Shown piece by piece: positions 2,221-61,452 of a stretch of 64,000 nt of DNA. Under the pieces are notes generated by a model. The model searched no databases. It saw only the letters and a list, made by a program, of their open reading frames with translations, and had not been told where the DNA came from. The DNA comes from Ostreococcus lucimarinus. Lineage: Eukaryota. Position 1 is the first letter of the stretch. Each line of letters begins with the position of its first letter. The position numbers and the translations under genes were made by a program. The stretch is from assembly GCA_000092065.1 (NCBI GenBank), contig CP000599.1; one strand, 5' to 3'.

Positions 2221-2658
2221 AGGATCATCACCGAATGCATGGGATGATCGCCGAGTGTGAAACACGTTAGTCGTTTGTTAGATAGAGACAAACCACATCA
2301 CGCGAAACCGCGTCGCGCGCGACCGACGCGCGAGCCTCGAGTCGAATTCAAATTCCTTCGGTCCCCTCGTCAGCTCGTGACTTGAAACGACCGTTGTCGA
2401 CCGCGAGTCAACGCGCGTGAATGTAAACACGCAAACAGTCTCACATACACATACACAAGGTGCCGACCCGTATCACAGACTAAAAACCCACACAGTATGT
2501 GTATTTATACGTATAATAAAAATTAGATGGCATTTGCCAGCGCATCGCCAGCGCATCACGCCGAATGTCCGAACCTTCCATTTTATCGCGCCACACTGGT
2601 TATCTGGTAACAGGTTATAATTTCTTTGAATACGAGGCGTGTCGACCCGGTCGACGCA

Positions 2659-3173: not shown

Positions 3174-4471
3174 CTGTTGGTGATGACGTCGATATCAACT
3201 TTATGCTGACGAACACCTTCTTGGTGTTCTTCATGCAAGCCGGCTTCGCGATGTTGTGCGCCGGATCCGTGCGAAGCAAGAACACGAAGAACATTTTGAT
3301 TAAAAACGTGCTCGACGCGTGCGTCGGCGCCATCGCGTGGTTCTTGTTTGGCTACGGTTTCGCGTTCGGGGCGACGACCGGAAAGAAGGAAAACGCGTTC
3401 ATCGGTTCCGGTAACTTCGCGATGAAGGACGTCACCACTGCGAGCGAATTGGCGATGTACTTGTTCCAGTGGTCGTTCTCCGCTGCGGCGACGACGATCG
3501 TGTCTGGCTCTGTCGCCGAACGCACCAAGTTCGAGGCGTACCTCGGCTACTCTTTCTTCCTCACCGCCTTCGTGTACCCGGTCGTCGTGCACTGGACCTG
3601 GAGTGGTGGCGCGGGCTGGTTGGGCACTGGCTACACTTTGGGCGACAAGGTCGCTGACGTTGGCATGCACGACTTCGCCGGCTCTGGCGTCGTCCACATG
3701 GTTGGTGGTTTCGCTGGTTTGATGGGCGCCATGATCGTCGGTCCGCGCACCGGTCGCTTTGCTTCCGATGGTCGCGTGAACCCGATGCCGGGCCACTCCG
3801 CCCCGCTCGTCGTTCTCGGCACCTTCGTCCTCTGGCTCGGCTGGTACGGCTTCAACCCGGGCTCCGCGGGCGGCGTCGTCGACAACGCTGAAACTGTGGC
3901 CCGCTGTGCCATCACCACGACGCTCTCCGCCGCCGCTGGTGGTGTGACAGCCATGCTCTTGAACTACAAGTTGTACCACGTCTGGGACTTGATCGCCGTG
4001 TGCAACGGTGTTCTCGCGGGTCTCGTCTCCATCACCGCCGGTTGCGCCGTCACGGAACCGTGGGCCGCCCTCGTCTGCGGTTCGCTCGGCGCCCTCGTCA
4101 TTCACTTCTCCTCCAAGCTCTTGCTCAAGTTCCAAATCGACGATCCGCTCGAAGCGGCGCCGATGCACGGCTTCTGCGGCGCCTTCGGCGTTCTCTGGGT
4201 CGGTTTCATGGCCAAGAAGGAATACGCCGAGGCTCAGGGTGCCAGAGCTGGTGCGTTTTACGAAGGTGGCGGCAAGCAACTCGGCGCGCAAATCGTCGGT
4301 ATCCTCGTCATCATCGCGTGGACGTGCGGCACCATTGGTCCCTTCTTCATGTTGATGAAGAAGTTCAACTTGCTCCGCACCACCGTCGAAGAAGAGACGC
4401 TCGGCTTGGACGAATCCAAGCACGGCGGCAAGGCGTACGCGCTGGAACTCGTCGCTCCGGAACCAGCGTAA
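3174..4471 (+). CDS. AMT1: Ammonium transporter (Amt/MEP/Rh family, AMT1-like), main coding exon
   Basis: Hallmark motifs FLVFFMQAGFAMLCAGSVRSKNTKNILIKNVLD, DFAGSGVVHMVGG and GFNPGS, with multiple TM helices. The ORF-track start at 3095 is a TTG. The first in-frame ATG is at 3203. A probable 4-nt first exon ATGG (2807-2810) is spliced to 3174 (see findings). Confidence 0.92.
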
Positions 4472-4627
4472 ACGTGCGCTCCACGGGTTGAACGAACGTA
4501 TCGTCGGTCAGAAATTTTCTGAGCACGTACATCCCGCTCGTTTCTGCGAAGAAGGCGCTCGTACGCACGCGTTCGCGCGTCTCTTTTTCACTCTTAACCA
4601 TCACAAAACAGATTCACCTTCCTCTTT

Positions 4628-4632
4628 TGTAA
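4628..4632 (+). terminator. TGTAA candidate poly(A) signal for AMT
   Basis: ttttgtaaaacc lies in the AT-rich convergent gap between AMT and the HAD gene. Confidence 0.35.
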
Positions 4633-4670
4633 AACCGATGATTACTATACCTATTATTATTACACCTCGA

Positions 4671-5798
4671 TCACCACGCGAAACGTTCGATCACGTGCGT
4701 CGGCGTCGCATCGGGATGCTCTCGCAGAACGTCCTCGAGCGCTCGAAGCTTCAACTCCGCGGCGTGAACGCCCACTCCTCGCACGAACACCGTGTCCACG
4801 CCCGCGCGCGCGCCGCCGGCGACGTCGTGCGCCAACGAGTCTCCGACGGCGACGACGCGCGATTTATCCAAATCGCCGCCGGCGGCTTTGATTTCCCACA
4901 GCAACTCTTCGTAAATGATGGACGACGGCTTCCCCATCAAACACACGTACGCCTCGCCGTCCTCGCCCGCGTGCGTGGCGTTGAATTTATCGACGTAATA
5001 TCTCGCGAGCGTCCCCGGCATGGCGACGAGCGTCTCGCCCGAAACCGTCACGAAATCCGGATTCGCGACGCACAGAGGCACCTTGGCCGCCGCCGCCCGT
5101 TCGACGAGCGCCCGCATCGTCTCCTCGTCCACGGTCTCGCACGGCTTCCCATCGCCGCGCCCGATCGCCTCCGTCCCGTGCGCCAACACGAAATCCACGC
5201 GTTCGATCGCGTTCGCGTCGCCAGCGTCGTCGGCCGACGAAACGTCCACGATTTCGATTCGCGCGTTCGTCTCCTCGCCCAGCGTAATCGCGCCGCGAGC
5301 GCTCCACGTCAAATGCGCCGCTCTCGCTCTCCTCCCCTCCGATCTCGCCCCATCGATCGCGCGTCGCAAGCGACGAAAATTATCTCCCATCGCCGTCGTC
5401 TTTTCCGTTCTCCAATCGTCCGCGTCGCGCGTCGCGAACCGCCGCGCGACTTCGCCGCTCGTCATCGCGCCGCGAAACGCCGTCGCCGAGAACCCCATCG
5501 ACGCCAACCGCGCGATCGTGCCCTCTCGACCGCGCGAGGAGTTCGACACGATGTATATCCGCTTCCCCATCGCGGCGAGCGCGTCGACGCACTCGACGGC
5601 GCCGTCGTACGGCGTCGAACCGTCGTGCAGTAGACCAAACTGGTCCAGCAGCCAAACGTCGTAGTCGTCCGCGAATCGCGACACGCGCGTCGCGCGCGTC
5701 GACGTCATCGCCGCGGAATCGCGCGAGCGACGCCGTCGCGAGCGCGCGGACGACGCGCGCGCGGTGGCGACGCGAGAGAGATTCGACGCCGTCGCCAT
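4671..5798 (-). CDS. HAD-superfamily hydrolase, subfamily IIA (TIGR01459-like)
   Basis: LLDQFGLLHDGSTPYDGAVECVDALAAMGKRIYIVSNSSR, a C-terminal AVGDSLAHDVAGGARAGVDTVFV motif, and an Arg/Ser-rich N-terminal presequence. ATG at 5798. Confidence 0.8.
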   Translation of the reverse strand: MATASNLSRVATARASSARSRRRRSRDSAAMTSTRATRVSRFADDYDVWLLDQFGLLHDGSTPYDGAVECVDALAAMGKRIYIVSNSSRGREGTIARLASMGFSATAFRGAMTSGEVARRFATRDADDWRTEKTTAMGDNFRRLRRAIDGARSEGRRARAAHLTWSARGAITLGEETNARIEIVDVSSADDAGDANAIERVDFVLAHGTEAIGRGDGKPCETVDEETMRALVERAAAAKVPLCVANPDFVTVSGETLVAMPGTLARYYVDKFNATHAGEDGEAYVCLMGKPSSIIYEELLWEIKAAGGDLDKSRVVAVGDSLAHDVAGGARAGVDTVFVRGVGVHAAELKLRALEDVLREHPDATPTHVIERFAW

Positions 5799-6726: not shown

Positions 6727-9700
6727 CTACCGCGCGCGTAATTCGTTAATTTTAAGCGTGAGATAGGCGGTGACGTCGTCGGAGGCCGGTGGCATGGACT
6801 CGGCGATGTAGACCAAGGTGGCGATCTCGCGCGCGGTGGCGCCGGCGCCGTCTAAGACGGCGTCGAAGACGCGCTCGGCGGCGGCCAAGGATACGGCGCC
6901 GGATTTCTTCACCGAGGCGTCCGCGATCGAGAGAGCCTTGTCGTCGTATTTCGCGCCGTCGATGACGCGGTATTGCTTTGAGGCGGATTTTGTGAGACCT
7001 GATTCGATCTCTTCGCGTCTGGCGTCGATTCGCGGTTGTAAATACGTCGCCGCGGCGTCGCTGAGGACGTAGGCGTATCGACCGCCGCCGCCGGCGAGCA
7101 CCAGCGCCAAAGTCTCGAGCTCGATCTTCGTGATTCCGGCGCCGTCGAAGACGCTTTCGTAAATTTTTTCCGCGCCGGCGCGATCGATTTCGCCTCTTTC
7201 CGCCATGAAAGTGTCCGCGAGGCACAGAGCGGCGTTGTCGTACCTGACGCCGCCGACGGTGCGATAGAATCCTTGAGGCGCTTTACGCTTTTGCGCGCGC
7301 TGTTGCTGCGTCAAAGCGTTCTTTTCCGTCAAACGTGCGTCGCGCAGTCGGGAACGGAGCTCCGCAGCGAGACCCGTGGCGTCGAGACCGCGCGCTGCGC
7401 ACTCGGCGATGAGTTCGTCGCGCTTCATTTTGCTCAACGCGGTGAGCGAGGACGGTTCGAAGACGATCGCCGGGCGTTCCTCACTCGCGGCGTCAACACC
7501 CGGCGAGGAGGTTTCAGTGCTGACGATTACGGGCGTCGGCGTCGATGGTGCCGGCACCTGCGCTCCGCTCGCGCGTTCAGCCGCGGTTTCGGCTTTCGCC
7601 GCGCGTTTGGCCAGAGCCTCCGTCTTGGCTTCGGCTTCCTTGATCGCAAGCGTCGCCGATGAAAGCTTGGCTTCGAGCTCTTCCAACTGCGTCGCGAATC
7701 GAGACTCGGCTTCCGCTAAATCGCTCGCCGCACGCTCAGCGATCGTCTGCGCCTCGACCGCAAATTCTTCTTGGGCTCGCTCGCGCGCAACATCGGCGTC
7801 GTCCTCGGCAGCGGCGAGCCGCGCCTCCATGCGTGCCAAATCTGCTCGCAATTCTCGCTCGACGTCGTCATTCAACGCGCTACTCGATGCCTCAACCTTT
7901 GCTCGCGCTTCCGTTAAGTTGCGCGTCAACTCGTCGCGCTCGGCGGCGATTGCCGCGAGCGCCGCCGCAGCCGCTTCCTGTTCGCTTCTGAGCTCGCGCG
8001 CCAGTTCGCTCGCGCGATCGTCTGCTTCGGCTAGCTTTCGCTCCAACTCATCGCTCATCGAACGCAGGCGCGTCGCCTCGGAAGCTTCAGCCCTGGTGCG
8101 CTCGATTTCATCTCTCAACTCCTCCTGCTCGAGTTCAGCGATTCGAAGTTTCTCTCGCCATGCGTTTTCTGCGCGTCGCGCGTCGTCGCGCGCGGCTTCG
8201 AGTTCAGAAGCCTCGACGAGACTCGCCGTCTTCGCTTTGAGGGCTTCAAAGCGCGCGTTGGCTTCGCTCGCACGGCGCTCGGCGTCGGTGAGTTGACCTT
8301 TTAAGCTCTCGAATGCCTCCGCCGCAGACGCGGCGGAGAGTTCGCGCGCTGATCCTTCTTCGACGAGGCGCTCTATGTCGCTCACAAGGCCGTCAGATTT
8401 GCTCGTTTCCTCGACCAATCGCGCGTCGACTCGGGACTTTTCTGCACGTAAGCGCTTGATTTCGACTTCTAGTGCGGTGAAGCGCTCCTCCACTTGCGCG
8501 ACGGCTGTTCTCGCCGCCGCTACGTTTTGTTCGCTCTGCGACATGGCGTCGTCGATGGATTTCTTGGACTCGGCGTACGCACGATCGACCTCGGACTTTT
8601 CGGCAACTAATTCATCGTACTTTGCTCGAATTTCGGCAATTCGCGCTTCAGATGAATCCACCGCCGTCGCAAGCTTTGCTTCGCTCACGCGTAAAGCCTC
8701 CGCAATGCGCTCGCGTTCTTTTTCAGACGCAACGGCGTTTTCTGCCGCCTTTGCTTCCAATTCGGCGAGAGCATTACGCACGTCATTTCGCTCTTCAACC
8801 AGGCGGTCGATCTCACCTTGTCGACGCAATGCTTCGTTTGCCGCGGCGGCGTTGATAGCGTCCTTTTCAGCGCTAGAAGCCGATTTCAAACTCGAGATTT
8901 CACTCGCATACGTGCGTGCACTCTCGGAAGCGGCTTTCTCCGCCTTGTTGAGCTCGTCGGTTTTAGCTTGCAATTGCCCGCGCAAAGTTTCGCACTCGGC
9001 TCGCGATGCATCCAGCGCCGTAGAATCTACCGCATTTGCGAGTTCACGCTCAAACGCACTCTTTTCCTCAGTCAATCTCGCGACGGTTTCTTGTAACTTT
9101 GCCATATCGCTTAACCGCGCGTTTTGCTCGCCGTCGAGTCGCGACTGTGCCGCCGCCTTTTCTTCTTGAACTCGCGCGAGCGCTTGACGCAATTCGAGCG
9201 CTTGCGATTCCGCGCGAGCTTCGGCACTCTTGAGCGTCTCCAGCGCAGATTCCTTCTCTGCGCGAAGTCGCTCAATCTCGCTCTTCATTTGCTCCTTCTC
9301 CGCTCGGCTCGACTCGTTGAGCGAACGCTCCATCTGAGCAACGGAGTCTCGCATCTCTTGCAGTTGTGCTTGCGCTTGTTTAGTTTCCGCGGAAGCGGCG
9401 TCAAGGGCTCGCGACATTTTGAGCGTCGCGTACGATTGCTCGTTCGCGCTTCTCGTTTCGAGTTTCGCCTCCACCTTGGCGAGTGCCGCGCGCGCGGTCG
9501 CGGCGTCTTCCATCGCTACTTCGGCTTCGCGCTTGGCGTCGTAGAGCTCTCGCGCAGTTTTGTCTTCATCGAGCAAAGTCGCAAATTGCTTCTCCAATCT
9601 TGCTGAATTTTCAATAGCCTTCTTCGCGTCAGCTTCGAGATTCTTGATCCGCCGCTCTTCGTTGGCGTATTGATGCTCGAGTTCGCGACGACGTTGATCC

Positions 9701-12276
9701 GCGGCGAGGGTCACTTTCCTCAATTCGAACGCGGCGTCCCGCTCCACGATTTCGGCGGCGCGTTCAGCCTCGCGAAGCATGCGCGTCAAGTCGGAAACTT
9801 GCGTCTTCAATTCGGCGTTTTCCGTCATCAACGCCTTGACACGCCCTTCGAGTGCGCCGGCACGCATATCATCGCGCTCAAGCGCCTTGTTGGCCGTGCG
9901 AAGTTCGCTGACTGCGCGCTCGAGTTCGCTGACCTTCGCTTTGAGTTGCTTTACGCGCGCGATGGCTTCGTCCTTGGCGATTTCTTCCGAGCGAACGCGG
10001 TCTTTGAGTTTTGCCACCTCATCGACAGTCATCCCAGATACACCTTCGAGCTCGGAGACGCGCGCATCCGTCTTGCGTTCGACTTGAGTGCGTTGGTACG
10101 TGTACTCCAACTGCACTTTTTCCAGACGCGAAGTCACCTCGCGGCACTCTTCGCTCAATTCATCGTTCCTCGCGTTGGACGCCTTCAGTTCGTCTTCCAA
10201 ATTACGCACGCGTTCGCCCAAGTTGCGCGCTTTTTCGTCGCTCTGCGAAGCAGACGTCATGGATTTTGCGACAAGCACTTGCAACTCTTCTTCCATTTCC
10301 TTTACCTTGAGCTGCTCCGCTTCGAGTTTTTGCGTGAGAGAGAACTCAACTGCCATTTGCTTCCCGAGCTCTGCTTTGGCGGTTTCCAAGCTCTGAAGCG
10401 CTTCGTCGACATCTGTTTCACTGGTGGTGCGCTTGCTCATGAAAACGTTGATATTTTCGATCCAAGCGGCGACGGGCATGCCGACTGAGGTTTCAATAGA
10501 CGGAATTTCCGGCGATGACTCCGGCTGCGTTGGCTCTTCCTTCGTCTCCGTCGCTTGAGCTTCGATCTTGGCTTGTTCGCGCTCGCGTTCTTCCTGCGCC
10601 GCCTTGGCCTTAGCCTCGCGTTCCTCCTGCGCCGCCTTGGCCTTAGCCGCGCGTTCCTCCTGCGCCGCCTTGGCCTTAGCCGCGCGTTCCTCCTGCGCCG
10701 CCTTGGCCTTAGCCGCGCGTTCCTCCTGCGCCGCCTTGGCCTTAGCCGCGCGTTCCTCCTGCGCCGCCTTAGCCTTGGCCTTGGCCTCGCGTTGTTGGCG
10801 CTCGCGTTCTTCCTGCGCCGCCTTGGCTTTGGCTTCGCGCTCTCTTTGAGACGCTTGGGCTTTCAAATCGCGCTCGCGCTGTTCGCGTTCACGTTTCTCT
10901 ACGAGTGCCTTTGCTTTGGCTTCGCGCTCGCGCTGCTGACGCTCGCGCGTCTCCTCTTGCTCGCGTTTGCGCTTCAAGCGGTCGAGCTCCGCCGCCTTGG
11001 CTTTCGCCTCGCGCGCTTGCACGGCGCGAATCTCCTCCTGCTCGCGCAAGAAGACGGCATTCTTCATCGCTGCCTTTTCAGTGTCTCGGGCTTTATAATA
11101 GACGTCGATCGCCGCGAGCACAGACGCCGGAATCTTGTTGCGAGGCGTCTGTTCTTCCATATCGGCGATAGTCTTGCAAACGGCGGCGTCAAGCTCGTCG
11201 CTCGAAGCCGCGAGCTTAGCCGCGAGCTCTGGCGCGCCCGAGATTTGCGAAAAAGCCTCCGCGAAGTCCAAACGAAGCGCTTGTCGACCTTCGGTCGTGG
11301 TGAGCAAACGCCTGTACACGGTGCCGTAATACGCCGTGACGACGAAACCGACGAGCTGTTCGAGCGCCGCGAGCGGCGGGTTGGATTCTAAACTCGACAA
11401 AACGGCGTCAATGGAAACCGTGGACAACACCGCCGTGACCGCGATCCCGGTCACGGCGCTGTACGCCACGCCCTGACGCAACGCGCGCTCGCGCGTGCGC
11501 TCGTACTCTTCCCAACTCGAATTCGCCTCGGCGTCGAATTCGCCATCCTTGTACTTTTTCAAATCCTCCAACAAGCTCGTCGTCTCTTTCGCCGTCTTCG
11601 CCGTCAGCGCCTTCACCGTCGCCTCCGCCTCGCTCTCATCTTTCGCCGCGAGCAAACTCGCGATCTTAGAGCTTATAAACGCCGCCTTCTTCGCCGCGTC
11701 CGCGAGCTCCGCCGGAATCGCTTCGTCTTCGTTCGCCCGCGCCTCCCGCGTCGATCGATCCAGCACTCGCCTTCCCGCGTCTCGCGCCCTCGACACCACC
11801 GCCGACGACGTCTCCGACTCTTCCTCTTCGTTTCCCGTCTCTCCCGTCGCTTTCACGATCGCGATTCGCTTCGATTCGCGTCGTCGTCGCGCCTTCGCCG
11901 CGCCTCGCGCGCCTCGTCGCGCCCCGCCGTCGATCCTTCCCGCCACCGTCGCCGCGATCGCCATCGCGACGCCCCCGGACGACGCGAGCGGTCGCGTCGC
12001 GTCGACGCGCGCGCGCGCGGTCGCGCTCGGTGCGCGCGCGCGACGAGCGCCGCGCGCGGGATCGGCAGACGGCGCTGCGATTTCAAACTTCGCGCGTCGA
12101 TTTCGTCGCGAAACCGCGTCCGCGGCGCGCGAGATTCGCGCGAGGCGCTCGCGTTCGCGCGCGCTCGCGTTCGGCGCGCGCTCGCGTCGCGCGTCGCGCG
12201 CGCGTGTGCGGTCGGCGAGGCGCGCGTTCGACGACGGTCGACCGCGCGGGTGGGTAAACAGTGCGGTACATTTCAT
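6727..12276 (-). CDS. Giant coiled-coil protein with N-terminal hydrophobic segments, a SAP domain and a duplicated C-terminal domain
   Basis: 1849-aa ORF with more than 1000 aa of heptad-rich Glu/Ala/Lys/Arg sequence. SAP-like LTALSKMKRDELIAECAARGLDATGLAAELRSRL. Two C-terminal repeats (YRTVGGVRYDNAAL... and YRVIDGAKYDDKAL...). The start may really be Met at 11964, because the CBS gene stop lies only 39 nt upstream of 12276. Confidence 0.75.
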   Translation of the reverse strand: MKCTALFTHPRGRPSSNARLADRTRARDARRERAPNASARERERLARISRAADAVSRRNRRAKFEIAAPSADPARGARRARAPSATARARVDATRPLASSGGVAMAIAATVAGRIDGGARRGARGAAKARRRRESKRIAIVKATGETGNEEEESETSSAVVSRARDAGRRVLDRSTREARANEDEAIPAELADAAKKAAFISSKIASLLAAKDESEAEATVKALTAKTAKETTSLLEDLKKYKDGEFDAEANSSWEEYERTRERALRQGVAYSAVTGIAVTAVLSTVSIDAVLSSLESNPPLAALEQLVGFVVTAYYGTVYRRLLTTTEGRQALRLDFAEAFSQISGAPELAAKLAASSDELDAAVCKTIADMEEQTPRNKIPASVLAAIDVYYKARDTEKAAMKNAVFLREQEEIRAVQAREAKAKAAELDRLKRKREQEETRERQQREREAKAKALVEKREREQRERDLKAQASQREREAKAKAAQEERERQQREAKAKAKAAQEERAAKAKAAQEERAAKAKAAQEERAAKAKAAQEERAAKAKAAQEEREAKAKAAQEEREREQAKIEAQATETKEEPTQPESSPEIPSIETSVGMPVAAWIENINVFMSKRTTSETDVDEALQSLETAKAELGKQMAVEFSLTQKLEAEQLKVKEMEEELQVLVAKSMTSASQSDEKARNLGERVRNLEDELKASNARNDELSEECREVTSRLEKVQLEYTYQRTQVERKTDARVSELEGVSGMTVDEVAKLKDRVRSEEIAKDEAIARVKQLKAKVSELERAVSELRTANKALERDDMRAGALEGRVKALMTENAELKTQVSDLTRMLREAERAAEIVERDAAFELRKVTLAADQRRRELEHQYANEERRIKNLEADAKKAIENSARLEKQFATLLDEDKTARELYDAKREAEVAMEDAATARAALAKVEAKLETRSANEQSYATLKMSRALDAASAETKQAQAQLQEMRDSVAQMERSLNESSRAEKEQMKSEIERLRAEKESALETLKSAEARAESQALELRQALARVQEEKAAAQSRLDGEQNARLSDMAKLQETVARLTEEKSAFERELANAVDSTALDASRAECETLRGQLQAKTDELNKAEKAASESARTYASEISSLKSASSAEKDAINAAAANEALRRQGEIDRLVEERNDVRNALAELEAKAAENAVASEKERERIAEALRVSEAKLATAVDSSEARIAEIRAKYDELVAEKSEVDRAYAESKKSIDDAMSQSEQNVAAARTAVAQVEERFTALEVEIKRLRAEKSRVDARLVEETSKSDGLVSDIERLVEEGSARELSAASAAEAFESLKGQLTDAERRASEANARFEALKAKTASLVEASELEAARDDARRAENAWREKLRIAELEQEELRDEIERTRAEASEATRLRSMSDELERKLAEADDRASELARELRSEQEAAAAALAAIAAERDELTRNLTEARAKVEASSSALNDDVERELRADLARMEARLAAAEDDADVARERAQEEFAVEAQTIAERAASDLAEAESRFATQLEELEAKLSSATLAIKEAEAKTEALAKRAAKAETAAERASGAQVPAPSTPTPVIVSTETSSPGVDAASEERPAIVFEPSSLTALSKMKRDELIAECAARGLDATGLAAELRSRLRDARLTEKNALTQQQRAQKRKAPQGFYRTVGGVRYDNAALCLADTFMAERGEIDRAGAEKIYESVFDGAGITKIELETLALVLAGGGGRYAYVLSDAAATYLQPRIDARREEIESGLTKSASKQYRVIDGAKYDDKALSIADASVKKSGAVSLAAAERVFDAVLDGAGATAREIATLVYIAESMPPASDDVTAYLTLKINELRAR
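10585..10840 (-). repeat. 33-bp in-frame tandem repeat (about 7 copies, 4 of them identical) encoding AKAKAAQEERA units
   Basis: The unit gcgttcctcctgcgccgccttggccttagccgc is repeated back-to-back at 10618, 10651, 10684 and 10717, with degenerate copies on both sides. Confidence 0.9.
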
Positions 12277-13020: not shown

Positions 13021-13108
13021 CGTCTAAATATCTAATTATATGGCCCTATACCATTCTTAGTACGGTCTCGTACTCGTATTTAAGTATACATACCATCTGT
13101 ATACATAG
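13021..13108. promoter_or_regulatory. AT island between divergent CBS (-) and ARM-like (+) genes
   Basis: tctaaatatctaattatatggccctataccattcttagtacggtctcgtactcgtatttaagtatacataccatctgtatacatagg. It has two GTAC cores and one CGTAT. Confidence 0.4.
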
Positions 13109-13308
13109 GAGAGCCGTTGCGACGCCCGCGCGGCACACGTCCACGCGCGCCCGCGTCCTCGCGCGGCGCCGGCGCGCGCGCGCGCGGCGCGACCCGATCG
13201 TGTTCGCCCCCGCGCGCGCCCGCATGCGCGCTCGCGCGCTCGAACGCGCCGCGGACGAAGGATTCGACGAATAATCTTTAGAATTTCACATTCGCACTCG
13301 CGCGCGCG

Positions 13309-15375
13309 ATGTCGCGCGACGCGCTCGGAGAACGCTCGACGCGGACGTTGACGGCGTACGGACGTCCGTCGACGTCGCCGCTGGCGGAGAGCGCGAGAGA
13401 ACTGGCGAGGACGACGATGGCGGGACGACTTCGGGACGCGGCGACGACGACGCGACGAGGACGGCGAGACGACGAGGGCGAGGACGAGTACGAGAGCGCG
13501 ACGACGACGAGCGAGACGACGAGCGCGACGGCGAGTTTGATTGGGTCGTCGGTGATCGAATTCGGGCGCGAGCGGGAGGGCGCGAGGAGACTGCGGGGGA
13601 GGGATCGGTTCGGAACGGCGGCGCGGCGCGAACGATTCGAAGAGTCGAAGCGAACGGCGAAGACGCGAGGGACGTTTGACGTGGCGGAGAACGCGAGATT
13701 GGCGCTCGAGGCGAAGGAGGCGCAGTTGCAGAAGATGGCGGCGCGATTGCGAGCGTTGGAGCGCGAGCGGGAGCGGGAGCGCGGGCGTGAGATGGACGAG
13801 GAGCGGGAGACGTTTGCCGACGCGGCGAACGATTTAGAGGGGGAGATGGCGGCGGCGATGGCGAGGTTACGAGGCGACGCTGGCGGCGCGACGACGTCGC
13901 GTCAGCAGACGACGAAGTCGTCGCGCGCGCGCGAGGACGCGGGCACGTTTGCGTTCGCCCCGGATGCTTTCGCGAGTCGCGACGGCGACGACCCCGCGAC
14001 GCCCGAGCTGCCGCGCGGGCGAGGCAAAGCGGAGGAACACGGCGATGACGTCGAGATGACGAAGACGCCGGAGATAAAGCCGATGCACCCACCGCGCGCG
14101 CCACCGTCAGAGCGCTCGGACGCCGAGATTTCGGAGTCGAAGACGCCTGAACCGATCAAACCAGGCGTACGCGTGGACGGCGGATACCTCACGCCGAGCG
14201 GTCGAGTCGTCGGGAGCGCGTTGAAATCGGGTTCGTCGAAGCCGAAGACGCCGAACGAATCCAAGTCCGTCGTATTCACACCCGGAGAGATCGCGCAGTA
14301 CTCGGACGCGGGAACGCCGTTCGACGCGGCCGATGTAGAAGAGTTGCGCGCCGAGCTCCGCGAAGTCAGGGCGGCGCTCAAGAGCGCGTTCAGCGTGAGT
14401 GAAAAACTCGTCGCGCAGTGCGAAAAGAAGAATAGGGAGATCAAGGAAAAGAATACGAGCGTCATGCTCGCGCGCGAGGAGCTGGAGAACGCGCGCGCAG
14501 CGCTCGAGCGAGCGCAAAAAGAAGCGCTAGAGGCGAAGAAGTCCGTCGCCGGCGTCCCGGCGGGCGATCTCGCCGAGGCGTACGAAAAGAGCAAACGTTT
14601 GAATAGCGAACTCTTGCGCGTGATGCGCGCGTCGATCGGGGTGAATGTCGAATTAAGTCCGGACGTTGTGTTCGCAATTCTACCCACGCTCGCGAGCTTA
14701 GCCGTGCGGGGAGACGTCGCCGAGGCCATGGCGCAGGGCGGCGCCTTGGACGCCCTCGCGGGAGCGTTGGATTTGTTCGCGCACGACCCCGCGGTTTGTC
14801 GCAAAGCCATCGCCGCGATCGAATCTATTTGTCGCGCCGGATCTCCCGACGCTAGCGGGGCGACTCAAGACGAAGAGATCATCGCCATTCGCTCGAGATT
14901 GACGAACGAAGCCGTGGACGCGTGCGGCGCCGCCGTGGCGCGATGCGCGTACGATCACGTCGCCGACGCGCGATTGAGCGAAGCCATTTGCGCGCTCGCG
15001 CACGCGTTCGCCGAGATCGGCGATTATGATCGCGTTCAGTTCTTGATTGGACGTGAATGCGCGCTGGTGCAAGCGATTTGCAAGATCTCTAAGACGCACG
15101 AGCACGACGAGCGAACGCAGCGCGCGTCTTCGTTGGCGCTCGCCGCGTTCGCCGCGTGCGACGAGAACACCAAGCGCGTCGTCGAAAGTCTCGGTGGCAT
15201 CGCGCTCATCAAGCGGTGCGTGCAGGAACTCGGAATAGATGACGCGCAGCGCGCGTTTCCGCACGTCAAGCGATGGATTTCCGGGAAGAAGACGCGCGAG
15301 GACAGAGAACGCGGCGCCCGCGGTTTCGACTCGGACGACGGCGAAGCCGACGTCGACGTCACGGGAAATCTATGA
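13309..15375 (+). CDS. Hypothetical protein with coiled-coil middle and armadillo/HEAT-like C-terminal region
   Basis: 688-aa ORF from ATG 13309. The N-terminus is Arg/Asp/Glu-rich. The central segment ELRAELREVRAALKS...LENARAALERAQKEALEAKK is coiled-coil-like. The C-terminal helical repeats include LASLAVRGDVAEAMAQGGALDALAGALDLF. Confidence 0.65.
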   Translation: MSRDALGERSTRTLTAYGRPSTSPLAESARELARTTMAGRLRDAATTTRRGRRDDEGEDEYESATTTSETTSATASLIGSSVIEFGREREGARRLRGRDRFGTAARRERFEESKRTAKTRGTFDVAENARLALEAKEAQLQKMAARLRALERERERERGREMDEERETFADAANDLEGEMAAAMARLRGDAGGATTSRQQTTKSSRAREDAGTFAFAPDAFASRDGDDPATPELPRGRGKAEEHGDDVEMTKTPEIKPMHPPRAPPSERSDAEISESKTPEPIKPGVRVDGGYLTPSGRVVGSALKSGSSKPKTPNESKSVVFTPGEIAQYSDAGTPFDAADVEELRAELREVRAALKSAFSVSEKLVAQCEKKNREIKEKNTSVMLAREELENARAALERAQKEALEAKKSVAGVPAGDLAEAYEKSKRLNSELLRVMRASIGVNVELSPDVVFAILPTLASLAVRGDVAEAMAQGGALDALAGALDLFAHDPAVCRKAIAAIESICRAGSPDASGATQDEEIIAIRSRLTNEAVDACGAAVARCAYDHVADARLSEAICALAHAFAEIGDYDRVQFLIGRECALVQAICKISKTHEHDERTQRASSLALAAFAACDENTKRVVESLGGIALIKRCVQELGIDDAQRAFPHVKRWISGKKTREDRERGARGFDSDDGEADVDVTGNL

Positions 15376-15459
15376 TGAATCTTAGTGTTGGCTATTTATA
15401 ATCTAATTTCTACTAGCAGCGATCGAACGAGCGTTTCGCCCGACTCGGCCGCGCCCGCG

Positions 15460-16602
15460 CTAACTCGACGCGTCGTCCGAACGTTTCTCTCGCGCGCCGA
15501 TGAACGCCGACATTTCCACCGCCGCCGTTCGAGTCGGCGACGCGTACGCGTCGTCGTCGTCGTCGTCGTCGTCGTCCATCGTCGCGCGCGTGAGCACGAC
15601 GAACCCATCGCCCGCGGCTCGAGCCCCGCCCTCGTCGTCGCCCTCGTCGTCGTCGCTCGCGAAATCGACGTCGTCCGCGAGATCTCCCAACCCCGTCTGC
15701 GCGTCCTCCGCGCCGACCCCCCGCGCTCGCGCCGAGAGCCGCGCGCACCCGAACGCCGTCGCCAACTCCACCGCCATCTCCCCTCGCGCCGGGTGCGCCA
15801 ACACGAACACGATCGCGTGCACCGCCCCCTGCGACGTCTTACACGCGACGTGCGCGCACGCGAGCCACAGCGCCGGCTTCGCTCGCCCCGCCAGCGTCGA
15901 CGCCCGCAGCGCCGTCCCCGGCACGTTCGTCACCACCTGCGCGATCGGGTACCACGCCAACCGTCGCACGTACGTCCGCAATCGCGCGTGCGCTCGCCGC
16001 GCCGTCGCGTCGTCGCGCCCCAACGTCGCCTCGAGCGCCGCCGCGCTCGCCATCCCGCGACGAATCGCGCGCCAGCAGCGCGCGTTGTAACAAAACGCCG
16101 CCCAAATCGGGACGTAATAAAAAACCAACCGGATTGTCGCCGCGCGCCTCCCCTCCGATTTCACGTGACACCGCCCCAGCCTCGAATCGCCGTACGCGTT
16201 CGCGAGCATCGGCGCGAGCGCCGACGCCGCGCACGCCGTCCACGCGAATCCGTCCTCGCGTCGCGCGTCGCCCCTCGCGCGTCCCGCGCGCAGGCTCTCC
16301 ATCAGCGCCCGCGACACGAGCGCCGCCCACACCGCGCCGGCGACGCCGAACGTCTGTATCAACGCGCCCTGCAAAGCGCAGATCGCGCCGCCGCGCGCGC
16401 CGCGATCGCCGAGCGCGCACGCCGTCGAAAACATCAAATCGCTCAGCGCCAATCGTTTCACGTACGCGTACGTCCTGCCGCGCGTACTGCGCGTCGCGAT
16501 CGCGCCCGCGAGGAGCACGAACGACGCGCCGGCGATCGACGCCGCTGAAGCGACGCGGTTCGTCGCGCGCACGATCGCGCGTTCGTCGGGCGTCCACGAC
16601 AT
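15460..16602 (-). CDS. 7TM receptor-like protein (cAMP-receptor/GCR1-type GPCR family, tentative)
   Basis: Starts MSWTPDE at 16602 and has seven hydrophobic segments. Family-like landmarks are CALQGALIQTFGVAGAVWAA, RLVFYYVPIWAAF, LAWYPIAQVV and SQGAVHAIVFVL. The tail is acidic and poly-Asp. The upstream part of ORF 15460..17727 is non-coding. Confidence 0.6.
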   Translation of the reverse strand: MSWTPDERAIVRATNRVASAASIAGASFVLLAGAIATRSTRGRTYAYVKRLALSDLMFSTACALGDRGARGGAICALQGALIQTFGVAGAVWAALVSRALMESLRAGRARGDARREDGFAWTACAASALAPMLANAYGDSRLGRCHVKSEGRRAATIRLVFYYVPIWAAFCYNARCWRAIRRGMASAAALEATLGRDDATARRAHARLRTYVRRLAWYPIAQVVTNVPGTALRASTLAGRAKPALWLACAHVACKTSQGAVHAIVFVLAHPARGEMAVELATAFGCARLSARARGVGAEDAQTGLGDLADDVDFASDDDEGDDEGGARAAGDGFVVLTRATMDDDDDDDDDAYASPTRTAAVEMSAFIGAREKRSDDASS

Positions 16603-16827
16603 TGTGGATTGAAAATTCGCGATCCGATGATTCGCGTCGCGATCGCGCGGCGTTCGGTTCGACGCGCGTCTCGATCGTCTCGGAACGTGTTCGCGATCGT
16701 TTACGACGCGTCGACGCGTCGACGCGCGGCGCGCGCGCGGCGCGATCGCGCGATTCGACGCGGGGGCGATCGATCGACGGCGGTGATTCGCGGACGCGAA
16801 CGCGAACCGTCGCGATCGGACACTCGG

Positions 16828-16905
16828 GTATAGGTATTGTGTTTCATATGATAAATATAATGTATAGAACGTGATAGTAATAAAAGGTAGTCGTATATAT
16901 AGGAT
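16828..16905. promoter_or_regulatory. AT island between divergent 7TM (-) and USP (+) genes
   Basis: ggtataggtattgtgtttcatatgataaatataatgtatagaacgtgatagtaataaaaggtagtcgtatatatagg. Confidence 0.4.
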
Positions 16906-17833: not shown

Positions 17834-18920
17834 TCACGTGAGATCGTCCTCCTCGGCTTCCACGGCGGCGACGATGCGCTTCTTAGCCTTTAATAGCATC
17901 GTCGTCTTCCAACCGTCGAGCCTGGACATGGAGTCGAATTCCGCCACCGCGCTCGAAAACGCGTCTTGATCGCCCGCCTCGAACGCCTTGGCGCAATTCA
18001 CCAACAAATCGCGCTCGCGCGACGACGCGAACGCCGGGTCGCTCTCCTCGTATCGCTCGCACGCGTTCAGCACCCCGACGGCGTCGTTCCAGCACAATCG
18101 ACAGATCCCCGCCTGTAAAAAGTACCCCTTCACCGAGAACCGCAGTAAATTGTTATTCAACGACGCGCGTCCGACGTCCTCAAAAATCTCCGTCGCCTCT
18201 TCGAATCGATCGAGCTTGCTCGCCAGCAGCGTCGCCGCCTTCAGTTTACAATTATTCCCCGTCGTCCGTCCCGAGTCGCCCTCGCCGTCGTACAGATCCG
18301 CCGCGCTCGAGAACGCCTCCACCGCGCGTTCATCCCCCTCCGCCGTCCCCAGGCTCTCGTACGTCTCGCCGATCTCCTTCAAATGTTTCGCCGCCTGCGC
18401 CAGTCGTCCCAATCGCGCGTACGCGTTCGACGCTTCCCTGTAGTGTCCGATCGCCTCCTCGTTCGCCCCGCACTTCTTCAGCATCTGCGCGCAGTCCACG
18501 TGCGCCGACGCCGCGTCGTGCGTCTCCTTCGTCGTCGCTCTGCACGTCGCCAGCGCCTCGTACGCGTCCGCCGCTCTTCGCCAGCTCTTCGCCAGCTTAA
18601 ACGACGTCGCCGCGCGCTCGTACAGCTCCGCCGCCTCCTCGTGCCTGTTCGCGCCCGTGATCGCGCTGAAGAATCCAACGCTCTGTCGTCGTCGTTCAGT
18701 CGGTCGCGCCGTCGTCAGTCGTCCTTCGTTCCTTCGTTCGTTCGTTCGTTCGTTCGCATTCATTCATTCATTCATTCGCGTCGATCGTTCGCGTCGAGCG
18801 CGCGCGTTCGCGCCGCTCGAGCGCGTCCGATCGCGCGCTCGCGCGCGCGCGTCGCACCCTGAGTTTCTTGGCCGCCGCGGCGCAGAGCGCGTCGCCGCGC
18901 GCGAGATCGTCGTCGCCCAT
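17834..18920 (-). CDS. ASNAP: Alpha-soluble NSF attachment protein (alpha-SNAP), two exons (18858..18920 and 17834..18682)
   Basis: Exon 1 is MGDDDLARGDALCAAAAKKLR. Exon 2 is SVGFFSAITGANRHEEAAELYERAATSFKLAKSW... This matches the canonical SNAP N-terminus (MGD...KKL..F......AA.L...AAN.FKLAKSW). TPR-like repeats run throughout. Confidence 0.88.
18683..18857 (-). other. Spliceosomal intron (175 nt) in alpha-SNAP
   Basis: AGG|GTGCGA donor, two CGACTGA(C/A) branch candidates, GACGACAG acceptor. It contains (GAAT)n(GAAC)n microsatellites. Confidence 0.8.
18722..18776. repeat. Compound tetranucleotide microsatellite (CGTT)n(CATT)n inside the SNAP intron
   Basis: ccttcgttccttcgttcgttcgttcgttcgttcgcattcattcattcattcattc. 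Confidence 0.9.
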
Positions 18921-18985
18921 CGATCGATCGATGCGTCGCGCAGTGCCGCACACGACGACGCGACGCGCCGACGCGTCGACGTCGA

Positions 18986-19771
18986 ATGCGCGCCGCGACG
19001 CGCGTCGCGACGTCGCGCCCCGTCCCTCGCGCGTCGCGCTCGAGCGCGTCGCGCGTCGCGGCGACGCGAAGATTCGACGCGCGACCGAGCGACGACGTCG
19101 ATTCGGCGCAAAGATTCGACGCGCGTATGGCGCTCGTGGCGCTCGCGACGGTCGCGGCGACGCGATGCGAACTTCTAAAGCCGCCGGCGTGCGAGGCGGC
19201 GTTCATGGAGGCGGTCGAGGGGTCGGCGTCGGTGGTGACGCCGGCGGCGCCGTCGAGGCTGAAGCCGCGCGCGCGCGACGTCGTGCTGGAATCGAAATCC
19301 GAACACGCGGGCGAGGATCTGCGGCGAGAGGACCTGCGAGGGGCGATCTACGCCGAGGCGGATTTGCGACGGAGCGATCTGCGGGAGAGCGACGCGCGAG
19401 GGGCGGTGTTCAGTCGAGCGGTGATGCCGGGGGTGGACGCGCGAGACGCCGATTTTTCAGACGCGATGTTCGATTACGCGCTGCTGCGAGGGAGCGATTT
19501 CACGAATAGCGTGTTCGTGGGGGCGAATTTCGTGCGGGCGGATCTGGGGGAGGTGGTGGCGACGAACGCGGACTTCACGGAGGCGGTGATCGATCGGTAT
19601 CAGACGCTGTCGCTGTGCGAACGGGCGTCGGGGACGAATCCGTACACGGGGGCGAACACGCGGGATTCGTTGCTGTGCGACTTGGTGAAGCCGTACGCGG
19701 GCTCGGGCGAGGGAGGGAAGGTGGTGGCGACGAAGACGTCGGGGACGTGGGGTGGGGGGGGGCGCGAGTGA
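18986..19771 (+). CDS. Thylakoid-lumen-type pentapeptide-repeat protein (TL15/TL17-like)
   Basis: Tandem A(D/N)LxX pentapeptides: EDLRREDLRGAIYAEADLRRSDLRESDARGAVFSRAVMPGVDARDADFSDAMFDYALLRGSDFTNSVFVGANFVRADL. The N-terminus looks bipartite, with an RR-containing presequence and then the hydrophobic MALVALATVAA. Confidence 0.8.
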   Translation: MRAATRVATSRPVPRASRSSASRVAATRRFDARPSDDVDSAQRFDARMALVALATVAATRCELLKPPACEAAFMEAVEGSASVVTPAAPSRLKPRARDVVLESKSEHAGEDLRREDLRGAIYAEADLRRSDLRESDARGAVFSRAVMPGVDARDADFSDAMFDYALLRGSDFTNSVFVGANFVRADLGEVVATNADFTEAVIDRYQTLSLCERASGTNPYTGANTRDSLLCDLVKPYAGSGEGGKVVATKTSGTWGGGGRE

Positions 19772-24396: not shown

Positions 24397-24462
24397 TGTA
24401 TCATAAACCCTATATTTACGTATTGTACACTTTTTAGTACTATGTAGATGTAGATTTTGGGT
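24397..24462. promoter_or_regulatory. AT island between divergent ATPase-MTase (-) and uL3 (+) genes
   Basis: tatcataaaccctatatttacgtattgtacactttttagtactatgtagatgtagattttgggtaaaac. It has two GTAC cores, a TACGTAT and an AAACCCTA telo-box. Confidence 0.4.
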
Positions 24463-25890: not shown

Positions 25891-26553
25891 TCACCGCTCT
25901 CGCGGCGCCTCCAACAACAACGGCTTGAGTATGTCCCAAGTCTTCGCCAACACCGCCGTCTTATAGCACAAAAACCCACAAAACGTCGCCCCGTACGAGA
26001 AATCAAACGGCAAATCCAACCGATTCCAGCACGCCGTGAACACGACGAGCGCCGTCGGCACCAACAGTCGTCTCTGCAGCAGCGCCCTCGAGTACACGCC
26101 GCCGACTTTGCCGAACGCGCCGCTCAGCATCGCGCCCACGTCCGTCACCGGTTCGTACACCAAATTTCGCGTGTAATCCGCCTCGCTGACGTTCCCATTT
26201 TCTAAGCTCTCGCTGACGCCGTCGACGTAGTCTTGGAGCAATCTGAGGTAGCCGAGCGCGCCCGCCGAGCCGAGCGCCGCGCTCAGCCCCGGCGCGACGC
26301 CGTACCCCAGCAGGCAGTACGCCGACAGCGCCGCGCCGTGCGCGAGCGTCGTCGAGCTCAGCTCCCGCTTCAACGCGACGTACTCCTCGTCGCTCATTCG
26401 CTTCTCATCGAGCGCGTCCGCGGGCGTCGCGCGACGCGGCGTCGCGATGTTTCCGCGCCGAGGGTTTCGTCGATTCGCATTCGGCGCCCGCGCGGCGCGT
26501 CCGAGCGCGCGCGCGTCCGTGCGCGTCGATCGCGACGTCGACGACGATCGCAT
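25891..26553 (-). CDS. Four-TM membrane protein, CGL160/ATP-synthase-protein-I-like (tentative)
   Basis: EYVALKRELSSTTLAHGAALSAYCLLGYG...LGYLRLLQDYVDG...RRLLVPTALVVFTACWNRL...FCGFLCYKTAVL. I chose the start at Met 26553 because ORF start 26844 would overlap the PIS gene. The family call comes from memory of CGL160-type sequences. Confidence 0.55.
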   Translation of the reverse strand: MRSSSTSRSTRTDARALGRAARAPNANRRNPRRGNIATPRRATPADALDEKRMSDEEYVALKRELSSTTLAHGAALSAYCLLGYGVAPGLSAALGSAGALGYLRLLQDYVDGVSESLENGNVSEADYTRNLVYEPVTDVGAMLSGAFGKVGGVYSRALLQRRLLVPTALVVFTACWNRLDLPFDFSYGATFCGFLCYKTAVLAKTWDILKPLLLEAPRER

Positions 26554-26694
26554 CTCCGCCGCGACCGCGCTCGGGCGCGTCCAGACGGCGTCCAGCGCGC
26601 GCGACAGTGCGGATTGCGAAATTGCACTTTTTGGGGACGCGCCGAACGCGCGCGCGTTCGCACTCCTCGACGCGCCCCGGACGCGCCGCGCGTC

Positions 26695-42751: not shown

Positions 42752-42897
42752 CTTTATATACGTATATTTCGTAGAAATATACTTTATATTCGGAAACATG
42801 TCGTATGGGTATTGTGTCTGTGGTTATAATTGGTAGTATCCGAATATTCGGACACACGGCGTATGCGTATTGTGTATATACACATAATTGGTAAAAG
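42752..42897. promoter_or_regulatory. AT-rich island in the SOD/CCS divergent intergenic region (putative bidirectional core promoter)
   Basis: About 145 bp of TA/TG/CA-rich sequence in an otherwise CG-saturated context. It contains TATACGTATA (42757-42766), four CGTAT motifs and the palindrome TCCGAATATTCGGA. Confidence 0.4.
42839..42852. promoter_or_regulatory. 14-nt perfect palindrome TCCGAATATTCGGA, with an extra direct half-site ATATTCGGA at 42786-42794
   Basis: Read directly. It is self-complementary across all 14 positions, and the half-site recurs 50 nt away. Confidence 0.35.
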
Positions 42898-46815: not shown

Positions 46816-46985
46816 CCTATATATAATACGACGCGAAACCTCATATAATCCTCATCACGACACCCAACAGTCACACACACGTATGTCTCTCATCATTACT
46901 AAGTACCTTACGACTATATATACATATACCGTATGTCCGATATATGTTTATAGGTATCCGTGTACGTATATTAGTAAAATAACGT
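46816..46985. promoter_or_regulatory. AT island between divergent 893-aa gene (-) and AGPase (+)
   Basis: ctatatataatacg...cacgtatgtctctcatcattactaagtaccttacgactatatatacatataccgtatgtccgatatatgtttataggtatccgtgtacgtatattagtaaaataacg. It contains the 14-mer ACCGTATGTCCGAT at 46928-46941. Confidence 0.4.
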
Positions 46986-55435: not shown

Positions 55436-55478
55436 TACGACGTTTGGTATCGTATATTGATCGATATTCGTCCTTCGA
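55436..55478. promoter_or_regulatory. Small AT island (GGTATCGTATATTGATCGATATTCG) between divergent RING and DUF285 genes
   Basis: It has the same CGTATATT signature as the islands at 42752 and 46816. Confidence 0.3.
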
Positions 55479-61351: not shown

Positions 61352-61452
61352 TACTCCATCATGGGGTTAAAATATATTTATATATGTACTGGTTCGTCTA
61401 TGGGTTTGTGTGTATTTATATATGTACCGTATGTCCGATGTGTATATTTATG
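61352..61452. promoter_or_regulatory. AT island between divergent DEAD-helicase and bL19 genes
   Basis: ggggttaaaatatatttatatatgtactggttcgtctatgggtttgtgtgtatttatatatgtaccgtatgtccgatgtgtatatttatgtatag. It contains two TGTAC cores and the 14-mer ACCGTATGTCCGAT (61416-61429). Confidence 0.4.

Follow-up and report, generated by a model that had tools for sequence, protein, structure and literature searches.

The DNA considered here is a 64,000-nucleotide stretch of the Ostreococcus lucimarinus genome (contig CP000599.1, assembly GCA_000092065.1; hereafter the window), in which seven short AT-rich blocks, termed islands below, lie between divergently transcribed genes. The islands are probably the AT-rich cores of TATA-containing promoters of RNA polymerase II (Pol II), mostly placed between head-to-head genes. 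We favor a TATA-type promoter core because the islands have the right place and size, hold nearly all TATA matches, are conserved in position and adjoin a conserved edge element. They look like ordinary cores of this type in an unusual base composition, and not like a new motif, repeat family or kind of element. An earlier interpretation made from the letters alone (the sequence-only reading) had listed these seven blocks together with a related block upstream of an ammonium transporter gene (2470–2530), and had proposed a bidirectional core-promoter or nucleosome-excluding architecture. All seven blocks are present, at 60–74% AT, as is the one upstream of the transporter, and the proposed architecture is the best supported interpretation (5'–5' position, TATAWAW matches, positional conservation), but it is neither universal nor exclusive at divergent junctions.

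The window is 64.2% GC (observed/expected 1.78 for CpG, 0.52 for TpA), and of ten open reading frames that were looked up, several are exact matches to O. lucimarinus CCE9901 proteins, among them XP_001422371.1 (13309–15375) and XP_001422383.1 (49053–50867). The window thus belongs to one of this picoalga's small chromosomes. A gene map built from a codon-usage log-likelihood scan and Pfam matches gives 39 junctions, of which 10 are divergent, 11 convergent and 18 tandem. The same orientations were obtained from independent gene calls on near-identical metagenomic strain contigs, which cover 3.3–25.4 kb and 33.7–64 kb and provide eight or nine haplotypes for strain comparison (six at the island starting at 16828). 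Islands, named here by their first position with 13021–13108 also called island 1, occupy seven of the ten divergent junctions, the island-less ones being 18674–19054, 26431–26721 and 33585–33863; the sequence-only reading had the seven right and put the total at nine or so. Orientation is confirmed by gene-called strain contigs at six of the island junctions, and none spans island 24397 on both sides. The gap from coding sequence to coding sequence is 158–732 bp at the seven junctions, which places these pairs among bidirectional genes in the usual sense (head-to-head, less than 1 kb apart, no gene between). The islands themselves measure 43–170 bp, with flanks of 70–75% GC and edges sharp to a few bases. 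They lie within the 5'–5' gaps, with 9–226 bp between island edge and first in-frame ATG.

The promoter assignment draws most directly on the distribution of TATA-like words. TATAWAW matches on either strand number 18 in 64 kb, and 14 of these fall in four of the islands (P = 3e-14). Three of the others are upstream of the ammonium transporter, where a canonical TATATAA stands at 2791–2797, one is in a convergent gap, and none occurs in 52 kb of coding DNA. The remaining three islands carry relaxed variants only (TATTTAA, TATATTT, GTATATT). CCTATA/TATAGG is found six times in four islands against 1.2 expected, chance expectation for this and other words being taken from dinucleotide-preserving shuffles of the seven island blocks. 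Outward-facing variants of CGTA(N)ATATAGG mark island edges at 16892 (+), 24411 (-) and 46816 (-). Several islands have TATA-like elements near both edges, which merely hints at one shared element that would serve both genes. Regulated and stress-type genes are the usual bias of TATA promoters, and the genes that flank the islands fit this bias: a Cu/Zn superoxide dismutase (SOD) and its copper chaperone, a universal stress protein and ADP-glucose pyrophosphorylase (AGPase), and likewise the ammonium transporter.

Inside the window, island-type patches are found at 7 of 10 divergent, 1 of 18 tandem and 0 of 11 convergent junctions (divergent versus tandem, P = 0.0007). Tandem junctions otherwise show only a short TGTAA patch past the stop codon and are GC-rich from there to the next ATG. 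Strain contigs that reach about 5 kb past each end of the window (about 10 kb in total) add three divergent junctions of 15, 40 and 115 bp, none with an island, and two island-type patches in long tandem junctions (525 and 1090 bp), with an alternation of 0.68–0.69 (see below), CGTAT and TATATAT. In the pooled sample, islands are present at 7 of 13 divergent and 3 of 22 tandem junctions (P = 0.02). If promoters acquired islands independently at the tandem rate, 25% of divergent junctions should have one, compared with the 7 of 13 observed (P = 0.027). The orientation effect is real but modest, and it partly reflects two promoters sharing one gap, and gap length. The notion that islands mark divergent junctions is therefore strong within the window and weaker with the flanks included, where islands are neither universal at such junctions nor confined to them. 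About 1.5 kb to the left of the window start, one strain contig (L032, 17370–17575) has a tandem duplication of about 105 bp, GGGCTCGATATGCG..GAAAACTCGAATAGTTTTCTGCGTATTGAACACGATGTATCCCCATGAATACAAAAC.., which sits beside an island-type patch within an intergenic region of 1.1 kb; strains L032 and L033 differ in the genes called there.

Purines and pyrimidines alternate in 0.661 of island steps, compared with 0.519 in 20 other AT patches and 0.559 window-wide (islands versus other patches, Fisher P = 5e-10; per-patch Mann-Whitney P = 4e-4), and this alternation at the dinucleotide level is the strongest and most significant property of the islands. TA accounts for 18% and AT for 16% of island steps, AA and TT for 5–7%; the GC step is almost absent (0.6%), and the CG step (5.3%) is mostly isolated (CGT 21, CGC 1). 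TA, AT and CG are in excess, AA/TT and GC depleted. AT-rich alternating runs, defined as at least 10 nt long with at least 60% AT, number 13 in the window. Divergent junctions, with 6% of the sequence, hold ten of them (P = 2e-10); the remaining three are upstream of the ammonium transporter, and none is in the 52 kb of coding DNA or in convergent gaps. An origin of the alternation by CpG decay, in which (CG)n would be converted to TG, CA and TA by transitions, was rejected: given the purine-pyrimidine pattern, CA/TG is under-represented and CG and TA are over-represented.

Such alternation could also serve as a structural element, with the tracts acting through unwinding, Z-DNA or cruciforms that absorb the negative supercoiling of diverging polymerases, or as replication origins. 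We consider this very unlikely, even though alternation stands out as it does and islands account for six of the ten 40-bp windows with the lowest duplex stability in the 64 kb. Like Z-DNA-prone tracts, the islands have strictly alternating TA, CA/TG and CG steps, as in TGTGTATATACACATA and CACACACACGTATGT, but their runs are 10–16 nt long and dominated by TA, and TA-rich alternating runs of this length are short and poor Z-DNA formers. Folding and stability calculations gave no structural signal: single-strand folding z-scores range from -3.1 to +1.7 with no consistent excess of hairpins (only island 1 is significant), and duplex stability is indistinguishable from that of convergent AT patches (P = 0.31). 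Moreover, seven islands in 64 kb are far denser than replication origins usually are.

The sequence-only reading had described a specific CGTAT/GTAC signature, and its counts are largely reproduced. At least one CGTAT is found in each of the seven blocks, two GTAC are found in each of four (13021, 24397, 46816 and 61352), TATACGTATA recurs at 2506–2515 and 42757–42766, and TACGTAT recurs at 24417–24423 and 46963–46969, 1–2 nt away from where it had been placed. Compared with shuffled islands, CGTAT is nominally enriched (12 versus 5.2 expected, 2.3-fold, P = 0.0025; presence in all seven blocks, P ~0.0015), but GTAC (8 versus 6.7, P = 0.35) and TACGTA (3 versus 2.2, P = 0.37) are at chance level. 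CGTAT had been picked as a motif after inspection of the sequence, and in an unbiased ranking of all 5-mers and 6-mers it falls outside the top ten, outranked by words such as CCTATA/TATAGG, AAATAT (8 versus 1.9) and GTCCGA. It is lopsided with respect to strand, with 12 CGTAT against 2 ATACG, and this reverse complement is not enriched (3.4 expected). Counted together, CGTAT and ATACG are about tenfold denser in islands (14 in 692 bp) than in other AT patches (3 in 1424 bp; P = 3e-5), and they reappear in island-type patches beyond the window. Convergent gaps, of which those checked in the sequence-only reading had been described as lacking the signature, are not entirely devoid of the two words: in gap 4454–4685, one CGTAT and two GTAC lie beyond the AT patch. 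Overall, CGTAT recurs reproducibly in island-type DNA but is not a demonstrated motif. CGTAT, GTAC, TACGTA and TATA are all strictly alternating words, and the signature mostly follows from the purine-pyrimidine alternation with its many TA, AT and CG steps.

There is accordingly little likelihood that the islands owe their character to a specific factor that binds CGTAT, TACGTAT or GTAC, such as a bZIP protein (ACGT core) or an SBP/CRR1-type protein (GTAC). The occurrence of CGTAT in every island and its density relative to other AT patches, inside and beyond the window, would be expected of such a site. Among strains, 10 of 11 checkable CGTAT instances are conserved, including those of islands 42752, 46816 and 61352, and the CGTAT of island 1 is kept in the related lineage L013 (see below). 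Set against this, the chance-level counts of GTAC and TACGTA and the rank of CGTAT when all words are tested do not single out a motif, the 12:2 strand bias is ill-suited to a shared bidirectional site, and the position of the word within islands is variable. It also comes and goes: two of six haplotypes lack the CG of the CGTAT at 16892, and one strain has an additional CGTAT at 13081; likewise, strains differ in one GTAC of island 24397. At 16892, the adjoining TATATATAGG (16894) is invariant in all six haplotypes and neighboring bases vary. Two named candidates were rejected, the SBP/CRR1 copper-response element, whose GTAC core is at chance level overall and absent from the copper-related SOD/chaperone island, and the bZIP ACGT-core element (A-box TACGTA), for which the count given above is no more than expected.

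Other Ostreococcus genomes allow the islands to be followed over longer distances. Synteny of the region extends to O. tauri (L001) and to several uncultured Ostreococcus lineages (L002–L010), and a metagenome scan with island 13021–13108 yielded 15 loci. In these comparisons, the islands retain their position and style from lineage to lineage but not their sequence. At the AGPase junction, an ATAC/GTAT-rich island is present in O. tauri, L003 and L007, and the island sequences are mutually unalignable; that of L007 is about 340 bp long and has internal direct repeats of its own. In a 21.8-kb O. tauri locus, all four AT-rich alternating runs are in divergent junctions (P = 0.002). The island 16828 ortholog in L015 is unalignable and less AT-rich. 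At the junction of island 1, L013 and L016 both carry an island. That of L013, a lineage with 93% protein identity, aligns without gaps at 33% divergence, whereas divergence is 6.8% at 4-fold sites of the adjacent gene and 15.5% on the GC-rich leader side, which amounts to a turnover about five times that of 4-fold synonymous sites. Within island 1, the blocks ATTCTTAGTACG, CGTAT and GTATAC survive. At the right edge, the element GGAGAGCCGTTGCG / GGAGAGCCGTTGCGA is identical in L013, and its core GAGCCGTTGCGA is kept in a clade at 49% protein identity (L016, L017 and L019), in which the island itself is unalignable. From this conservation, GGAGAGCCGTTGCGA is a candidate start-site-proximal element of the + strand gene XP_001422371.1. 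Between the window and L013, synonymous sites are far better conserved than 5' non-coding DNA, with a divergence of 6.8% at 4-fold sites and 15–38% in non-coding DNA.

The persistence of islands with unrelated sequences at orthologous junctions also bears on the suggestion that they are a decayed repeat or transposon family, that is, relics of a short mobile element (for instance a miniature inverted-repeat transposable element) that favors open promoters: it fits turnover in place and not insertion. The eight blocks were compared all-against-all on both strands by Smith-Waterman alignment, with 200 dinucleotide shuffles as reference. Islands 46816 and 61352 share a 15-mer, TACCGTATGTCCGAT, within a similarity of about 39 nt (46921–46960 / 61413–61451, z = 5.5), the summed pairwise score is slightly above that of the shuffles (P = 0.035), and islands 42752 and 61352, as well as the island of L007, contain direct repeats. 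Yet this island pair is the only one of 56 pair-and-orientation comparisons with significant similarity, and the maximum score is not exceptional (P = 0.065). Visual inspection and folding, with no dedicated search, revealed no terminal inverted repeats or target-site duplications at the island ends. The repeat family, which the sequence-only reading had offered as an alternative, is therefore rejected as extremely improbable. Generic repeat and tandem-repeat finders were uninformative on the islands, as their output was dominated by GC-rich low-complexity sequence.

Variation among near-identical strains gives a shorter-range view. Segregating sites amount to 24/548 (4.4%) in five pooled islands, 132/9655 (1.4%) in third codon positions, 133/2618 (5.1%) in GC-rich 5' flanks and 3/463 (0.65%) in 3' AT patches, and polymorphism in islands is equal to that of other 5' non-coding DNA (P = 0.59). 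Densities of individual islands range from 0.7% at the SOD/chaperone junction to about 12% in island 16828 (9/78). Island 1 has three segregating sites in eight haplotypes and island 46816 nine and a 7-bp insertion/deletion in nine haplotypes, with the TACCGTATGTCCGAT element nearly invariant; island 61352 shows a few single-nucleotide differences in two other haplotypes. The SOD/chaperone island 42752 is almost invariant, with one segregating site in 146 bp among nine haplotypes against 2.4% in its flanks. Island 55436 was not locatable in strains L030 and L031, where the region is rearranged or variable. Across the strain comparison, third codon positions are 1.2–1.6% segregating and 5' non-coding DNA 2.4–8%.

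In the mechanism that we propose, TATA-like elements of quasi-palindromic sequence (TATATATA, TATTTAA, CGTA.ATATAGG), close to one edge of an island or to both, would bind the TATA-binding protein (TBP), and edges occupied by TBP would set up one or two initiation complexes that face outward. Transcription would start at the island edge or just past it, at the transition to the GC- and CpG-rich leader. An island so much more AT-rich than its surroundings is probably nucleosome-poor, as the drop of about 40 GC points relative to the flanks suggests. The stretch between two start sites would be the only untranscribed DNA here and, a few binding sites aside, would drift fast near an AT-biased mutational equilibrium, with CGTAT, GTAC, TACGTA and TATA as the plain vocabulary of alternating DNA rich in TA, AT and isolated CG. 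In O. tauri, the mutational-equilibrium GC content is 36.8%, the intergenic mutation rate is twofold higher, and mutated intergenic sites have lower RNA-seq coverage than unmutated ones (PMC5455958). Island GC, at about 33%, is near this equilibrium, and together these data fit a lack of transcription that would be confined to the stretch between divergent starts. O. tauri gene starts have the lowest CpG methylation and the highest N6-methyladenine (6mA; preprint 10.64898/2026.07.10.737489), which is compatible with the promoter model.

The same mutation data can be accommodated if an island is a passive spacer, a short untranscribed gap between two starts that has no sequence function of its own and sits at AT-biased equilibrium, since transcription-coupled repair and the force that keeps GC and CpG high would both be absent there, and the alternation would result from neighbor effects on mutation or dinucleotide slippage. 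Several observations agree with such a spacer: the near-equilibrium GC content and the low RNA-seq coverage of mutated intergenic sites, the excess divergence of island 1 over 4-fold sites in L013, a polymorphism like that of other 5' non-coding DNA, CGTAT and GTAC instances that come and go among strains, local duplications and microsatellite-like runs within islands, and the absence of islands from very short divergent gaps (15–115 bp). We nevertheless regard it as unlikely. A compact genome should delete useless DNA, yet islands persist at orthologous Ostreococcus junctions; island 42752 is almost invariant, and footprints persist inside island 1 in L013. CA/TG steps are under-represented in comparison with CG and TA, contrary to the pattern that CpG decay would produce, and the spacer requires a special and hypothetical mutational process.

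Several points weigh against islands as TATA-containing promoter cores. The word TATA itself occurs 37 times in the islands against 30.5 expected from dinucleotide shuffles (P = 0.06), and alternating DNA rich in TA will contain TATA-like words by chance. The excess of alternating TA/AT over AA/TT goes beyond what TATA boxes alone explain. Most islands are no less polymorphic than other 5' non-coding DNA, with little sign of constraint beyond a few blocks. Three divergent junctions in the window and three in the flanks lack an island, as do most tandem promoters, which means that islands are not a general promoter requirement. In two genes, a distance of only 9–13 bp between island edge and first ATG leaves no room for both a leader and a TATA box at -30, unless translation begins at a later ATG or transcription is initiated inside the island. 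Finally, the analysis shows the position, composition, TATA content, conserved placement and fast turnover of the islands, from which TBP binding, the position of start sites, nucleosome depletion and the non-transcription of the islands are inferred.

A more far-reaching variant, which we hold to be rather doubtful, is that the islands represent a lineage-specific promoter architecture and a compositional mirror of vertebrate CpG islands. Selected alternation of TA, AT and CG would then mark promoters in a CpG-saturated, linker-methylated genome, near-palindromic TATA-like words would be neutral with respect to orientation and license both directions, and the richness in ApT could make islands targets of 6mA; composition and alternation would be selected, not motifs.

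As for known promoters, the islands have most in common with the TATA promoters of budding yeast and plants that have a nucleosome-depleted region. The two share the position upstream of genes, the concentration of TATAWAW, the size of 43–170 bp, the association with regulated or stress-type genes and the restriction to a minority of genes. Nucleosome-depleted regions in yeast use poly(dA:dT) tracts, whereas AA/TT is depleted in islands and alternating TA/AT in excess. Furthermore, the contrast of the islands with CpG-saturated surroundings of 70–75% GC is extreme. With the CpG-island bidirectional promoters of mammals and plants they share a head-to-head arrangement of less than 1 kb and one compact, compositionally distinct and probably unmethylated island. 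Known bidirectional promoters are GC-richer than other promoters and TATA-poor (PMC4035068), of which the islands, AT-rich and with nearly all TATA matches, are the compositional mirror image.

In Ostreococcus, Piganeau et al. 2009 (J Mol Evol) reportedly found that constraint on intergenic DNA depends on the orientation of the neighboring genes and that 5' regions have more conserved sites than 3' regions; the study is not known to have described AT islands, purine-pyrimidine alternation or TATA concentration. Such a pattern would fit the footprints at island edges; in the present strain comparison, it is the 3' AT patches that are least polymorphic. Nucleosome maps of O. lucimarinus are said to have been produced by Huff & Zilberman in 2014. 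A full-text literature search returned no description of the islands and only context on methylation, 6mA, mutation bias and poly(A) signals, and in this limited sense the view that they are uncharacterized holds.

The coordinates of the islands and associated elements are collected in Table 1. Island 1 contains an evening-element-like TAAATATCT at its left end (13025–13033), the inverted repeat AGTACG..CGTACT, TATTTAAG, and the alternating runs GTATACATAC and TGTATACATA. CGTATATATAGG lies at the right edge of island 16828, and in island 24397, CCTATATTTACG reads CGTAAATATAGG on the - strand. Island 42752, which has no GTAC, is distinguished by the palindrome TATATACGTATAT and an internal direct repeat of about 50 bp (ATATTCGGA..CGTATG.GTATTGTGT..ATAATTGGTA). 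In island 46816, CCTATATATAATACG is at the left edge and TATATATACATATAC and CGTGTACGTATAT are more internal, and island 61352 has TATTTATATATGTAC twice at a spacing of 38 bp. The weak patch at 55436 has neither a strict TATAWAW nor an alternating run of at least 10 nt.

Table 1. Positions of the AT islands and of elements associated with them in the window.
Feature	Position	Strand	Flanking genes or context
AT island, 66% AT	13021..13108		CBS-domain gene (-) / XP_001422371.1 (+, ATG 13309)
Conserved element GGAGAGCCGTTGCGA	13109..13123	+	Adjoins right edge of island 1
AT island, 74% AT	16828..16905		Seven-transmembrane (7TM)-like gene (-) / universal-stress-protein gene (+, ATG 16957)
AT island, 71% AT	24397..24462		P-type ATPase (-) / organellar ribosomal protein L3 (+, ATG 24528)
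AT island, 66% AT	42752..42897		Cu/Zn superoxide dismutase (-) / its copper chaperone (+)
Largest AT island, 64% AT	46816..46985		Unknown 893-aa gene (-, ATG 46803) / ADP-glucose pyrophosphorylase (+)
15-mer TACCGTATGTCCGAT	46926..46940	+	Second copy at 61424-61438 in island 61352
Weak short AT patch, 60% AT	55436..55478		RING-finger gene (-) / DUF285 repeat-protein gene (+); has CGTATATTGATCGATATT
AT island, 68% AT	61352..61452		DEAD-box helicase (-) / unknown gene (+)
Island-type block	2442..2530		967-bp tandem junction upstream of ammonium transporter; has CACATACACATACACA, GTATGTGTAT, TATACGTATA

Possible regulatory words were also seen next to or apart from the islands. Immediately to the left of island 46816, within the nominal first codons of the 893-aa gene, there is a W-box-like duplicate, GCGCGTTGACC(C)GCGCGTTGAC (46766–46790), which is near-identical in O. 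tauri (L001 9690–9712) though the 893-aa protein is poorly conserved; this suggests a cis element at this position and a start codon farther downstream for the gene. A perfect evening element, AAAATATCT, is found at 33630–33638 in the island-less divergent junction 33585–33863. In another Ostreococcus clade, the palindrome GAGTCATGACTC, with an AP-1/GCN4-like TGACTCA core, recurs in promoter regions (L003 5500–5525 and 5760–5775; upstream regions in L022, L024 and L025), and was not seen in the islands of the window.

The AT patches of convergent and tandem junctions belong to a different class. They directly follow stop codons, often with TGTAA: 6 of the 11 AT patches at convergent junctions and 7 of the 18 at tandem junctions contain TGTAA/TTACA, whereas no divergent patch does, which bears out the earlier remark that convergent gaps have a different AT-rich sequence, several with TGTAA. 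In the sense orientation, TGTAA occurs at most 150 nt past the stop codon in 12 of 38 genes, versus 2.2 expected, at distances of 7–73 nt, mostly 7–39. Chlamydomonas and other green algae use UGUAA as their principal poly(A) signal (PMC4025486, PMC1868727). The convergent and tandem patches fit this chlorophyte signal and probably reflect its use in this genome, unlike the islands, from which TGTAA is absent. The AT patches at gene 3' ends (for example 4575–4691, 15364–15437, 34587–34649 and 44031–44124) are the least polymorphic non-coding DNA among strains, below third codon positions, which implies strong constraint on very short 3' untranslated and poly(A) regions.

Some further features of the window have repetitive sequence in common. 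At least three tandem copies of a 75-nt unit (99% identity) occupy 57129–57369, a tandem junction directly upstream of a MiaB-like gene (57358–59328), and a separate array with a 75-nt period (55855–56679) lies inside the DUF285 repeat-protein gene (55426–56940), which is missing at the orthologous position in O. tauri and L007 and located in a region that is variable among strains. An open reading frame of about 1,850 aa with a SAP domain (6727–12276) contains six near-identical 33-nt (11-aa) tandem repeats at 10551–10900. A telomere-type repeat, (TTTAGGG)3, similar to the plant 'telo-box', is found at 29644–29664, 40 bp upstream of the gene at 29705–30427, and telomere-like AAACCCT repeats are present upstream of the island-1 ortholog in L024 and L025. 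ARAGORN called a 98-nt tRNA-Phe (16575–16672) and an 82-nt tRNA-Pro (30489–30570), both intergenic. These calls are probably false positives in GC-rich sequence, and Rfam at gathering score gave no match to a structured RNA gene anywhere in the window.

Ostreococcus serves as a model of a minimal eukaryotic genome, in which promoters are poorly defined and start sites have rarely been mapped. The islands do not overturn known promoter biology. If island edges are start sites, however, promoters of a considerable share of genes could be found from AT-rich alternating runs of at least 10 nt or TATAWAW matches, both near-absent from coding DNA. This would sharpen gene models, for instance the start codons of the SOD gene and the 893-aa gene, and would provide compact bidirectional promoters for engineering. 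The step from about 33% to about 75% GC at island edges also bears on what keeps Mamiellophyceae above their mutational GC equilibrium, a question left open by mutation-accumulation work. Should this step fall at the transcription start, a force linked to transcription would be favored over a regional one such as biased gene conversion.

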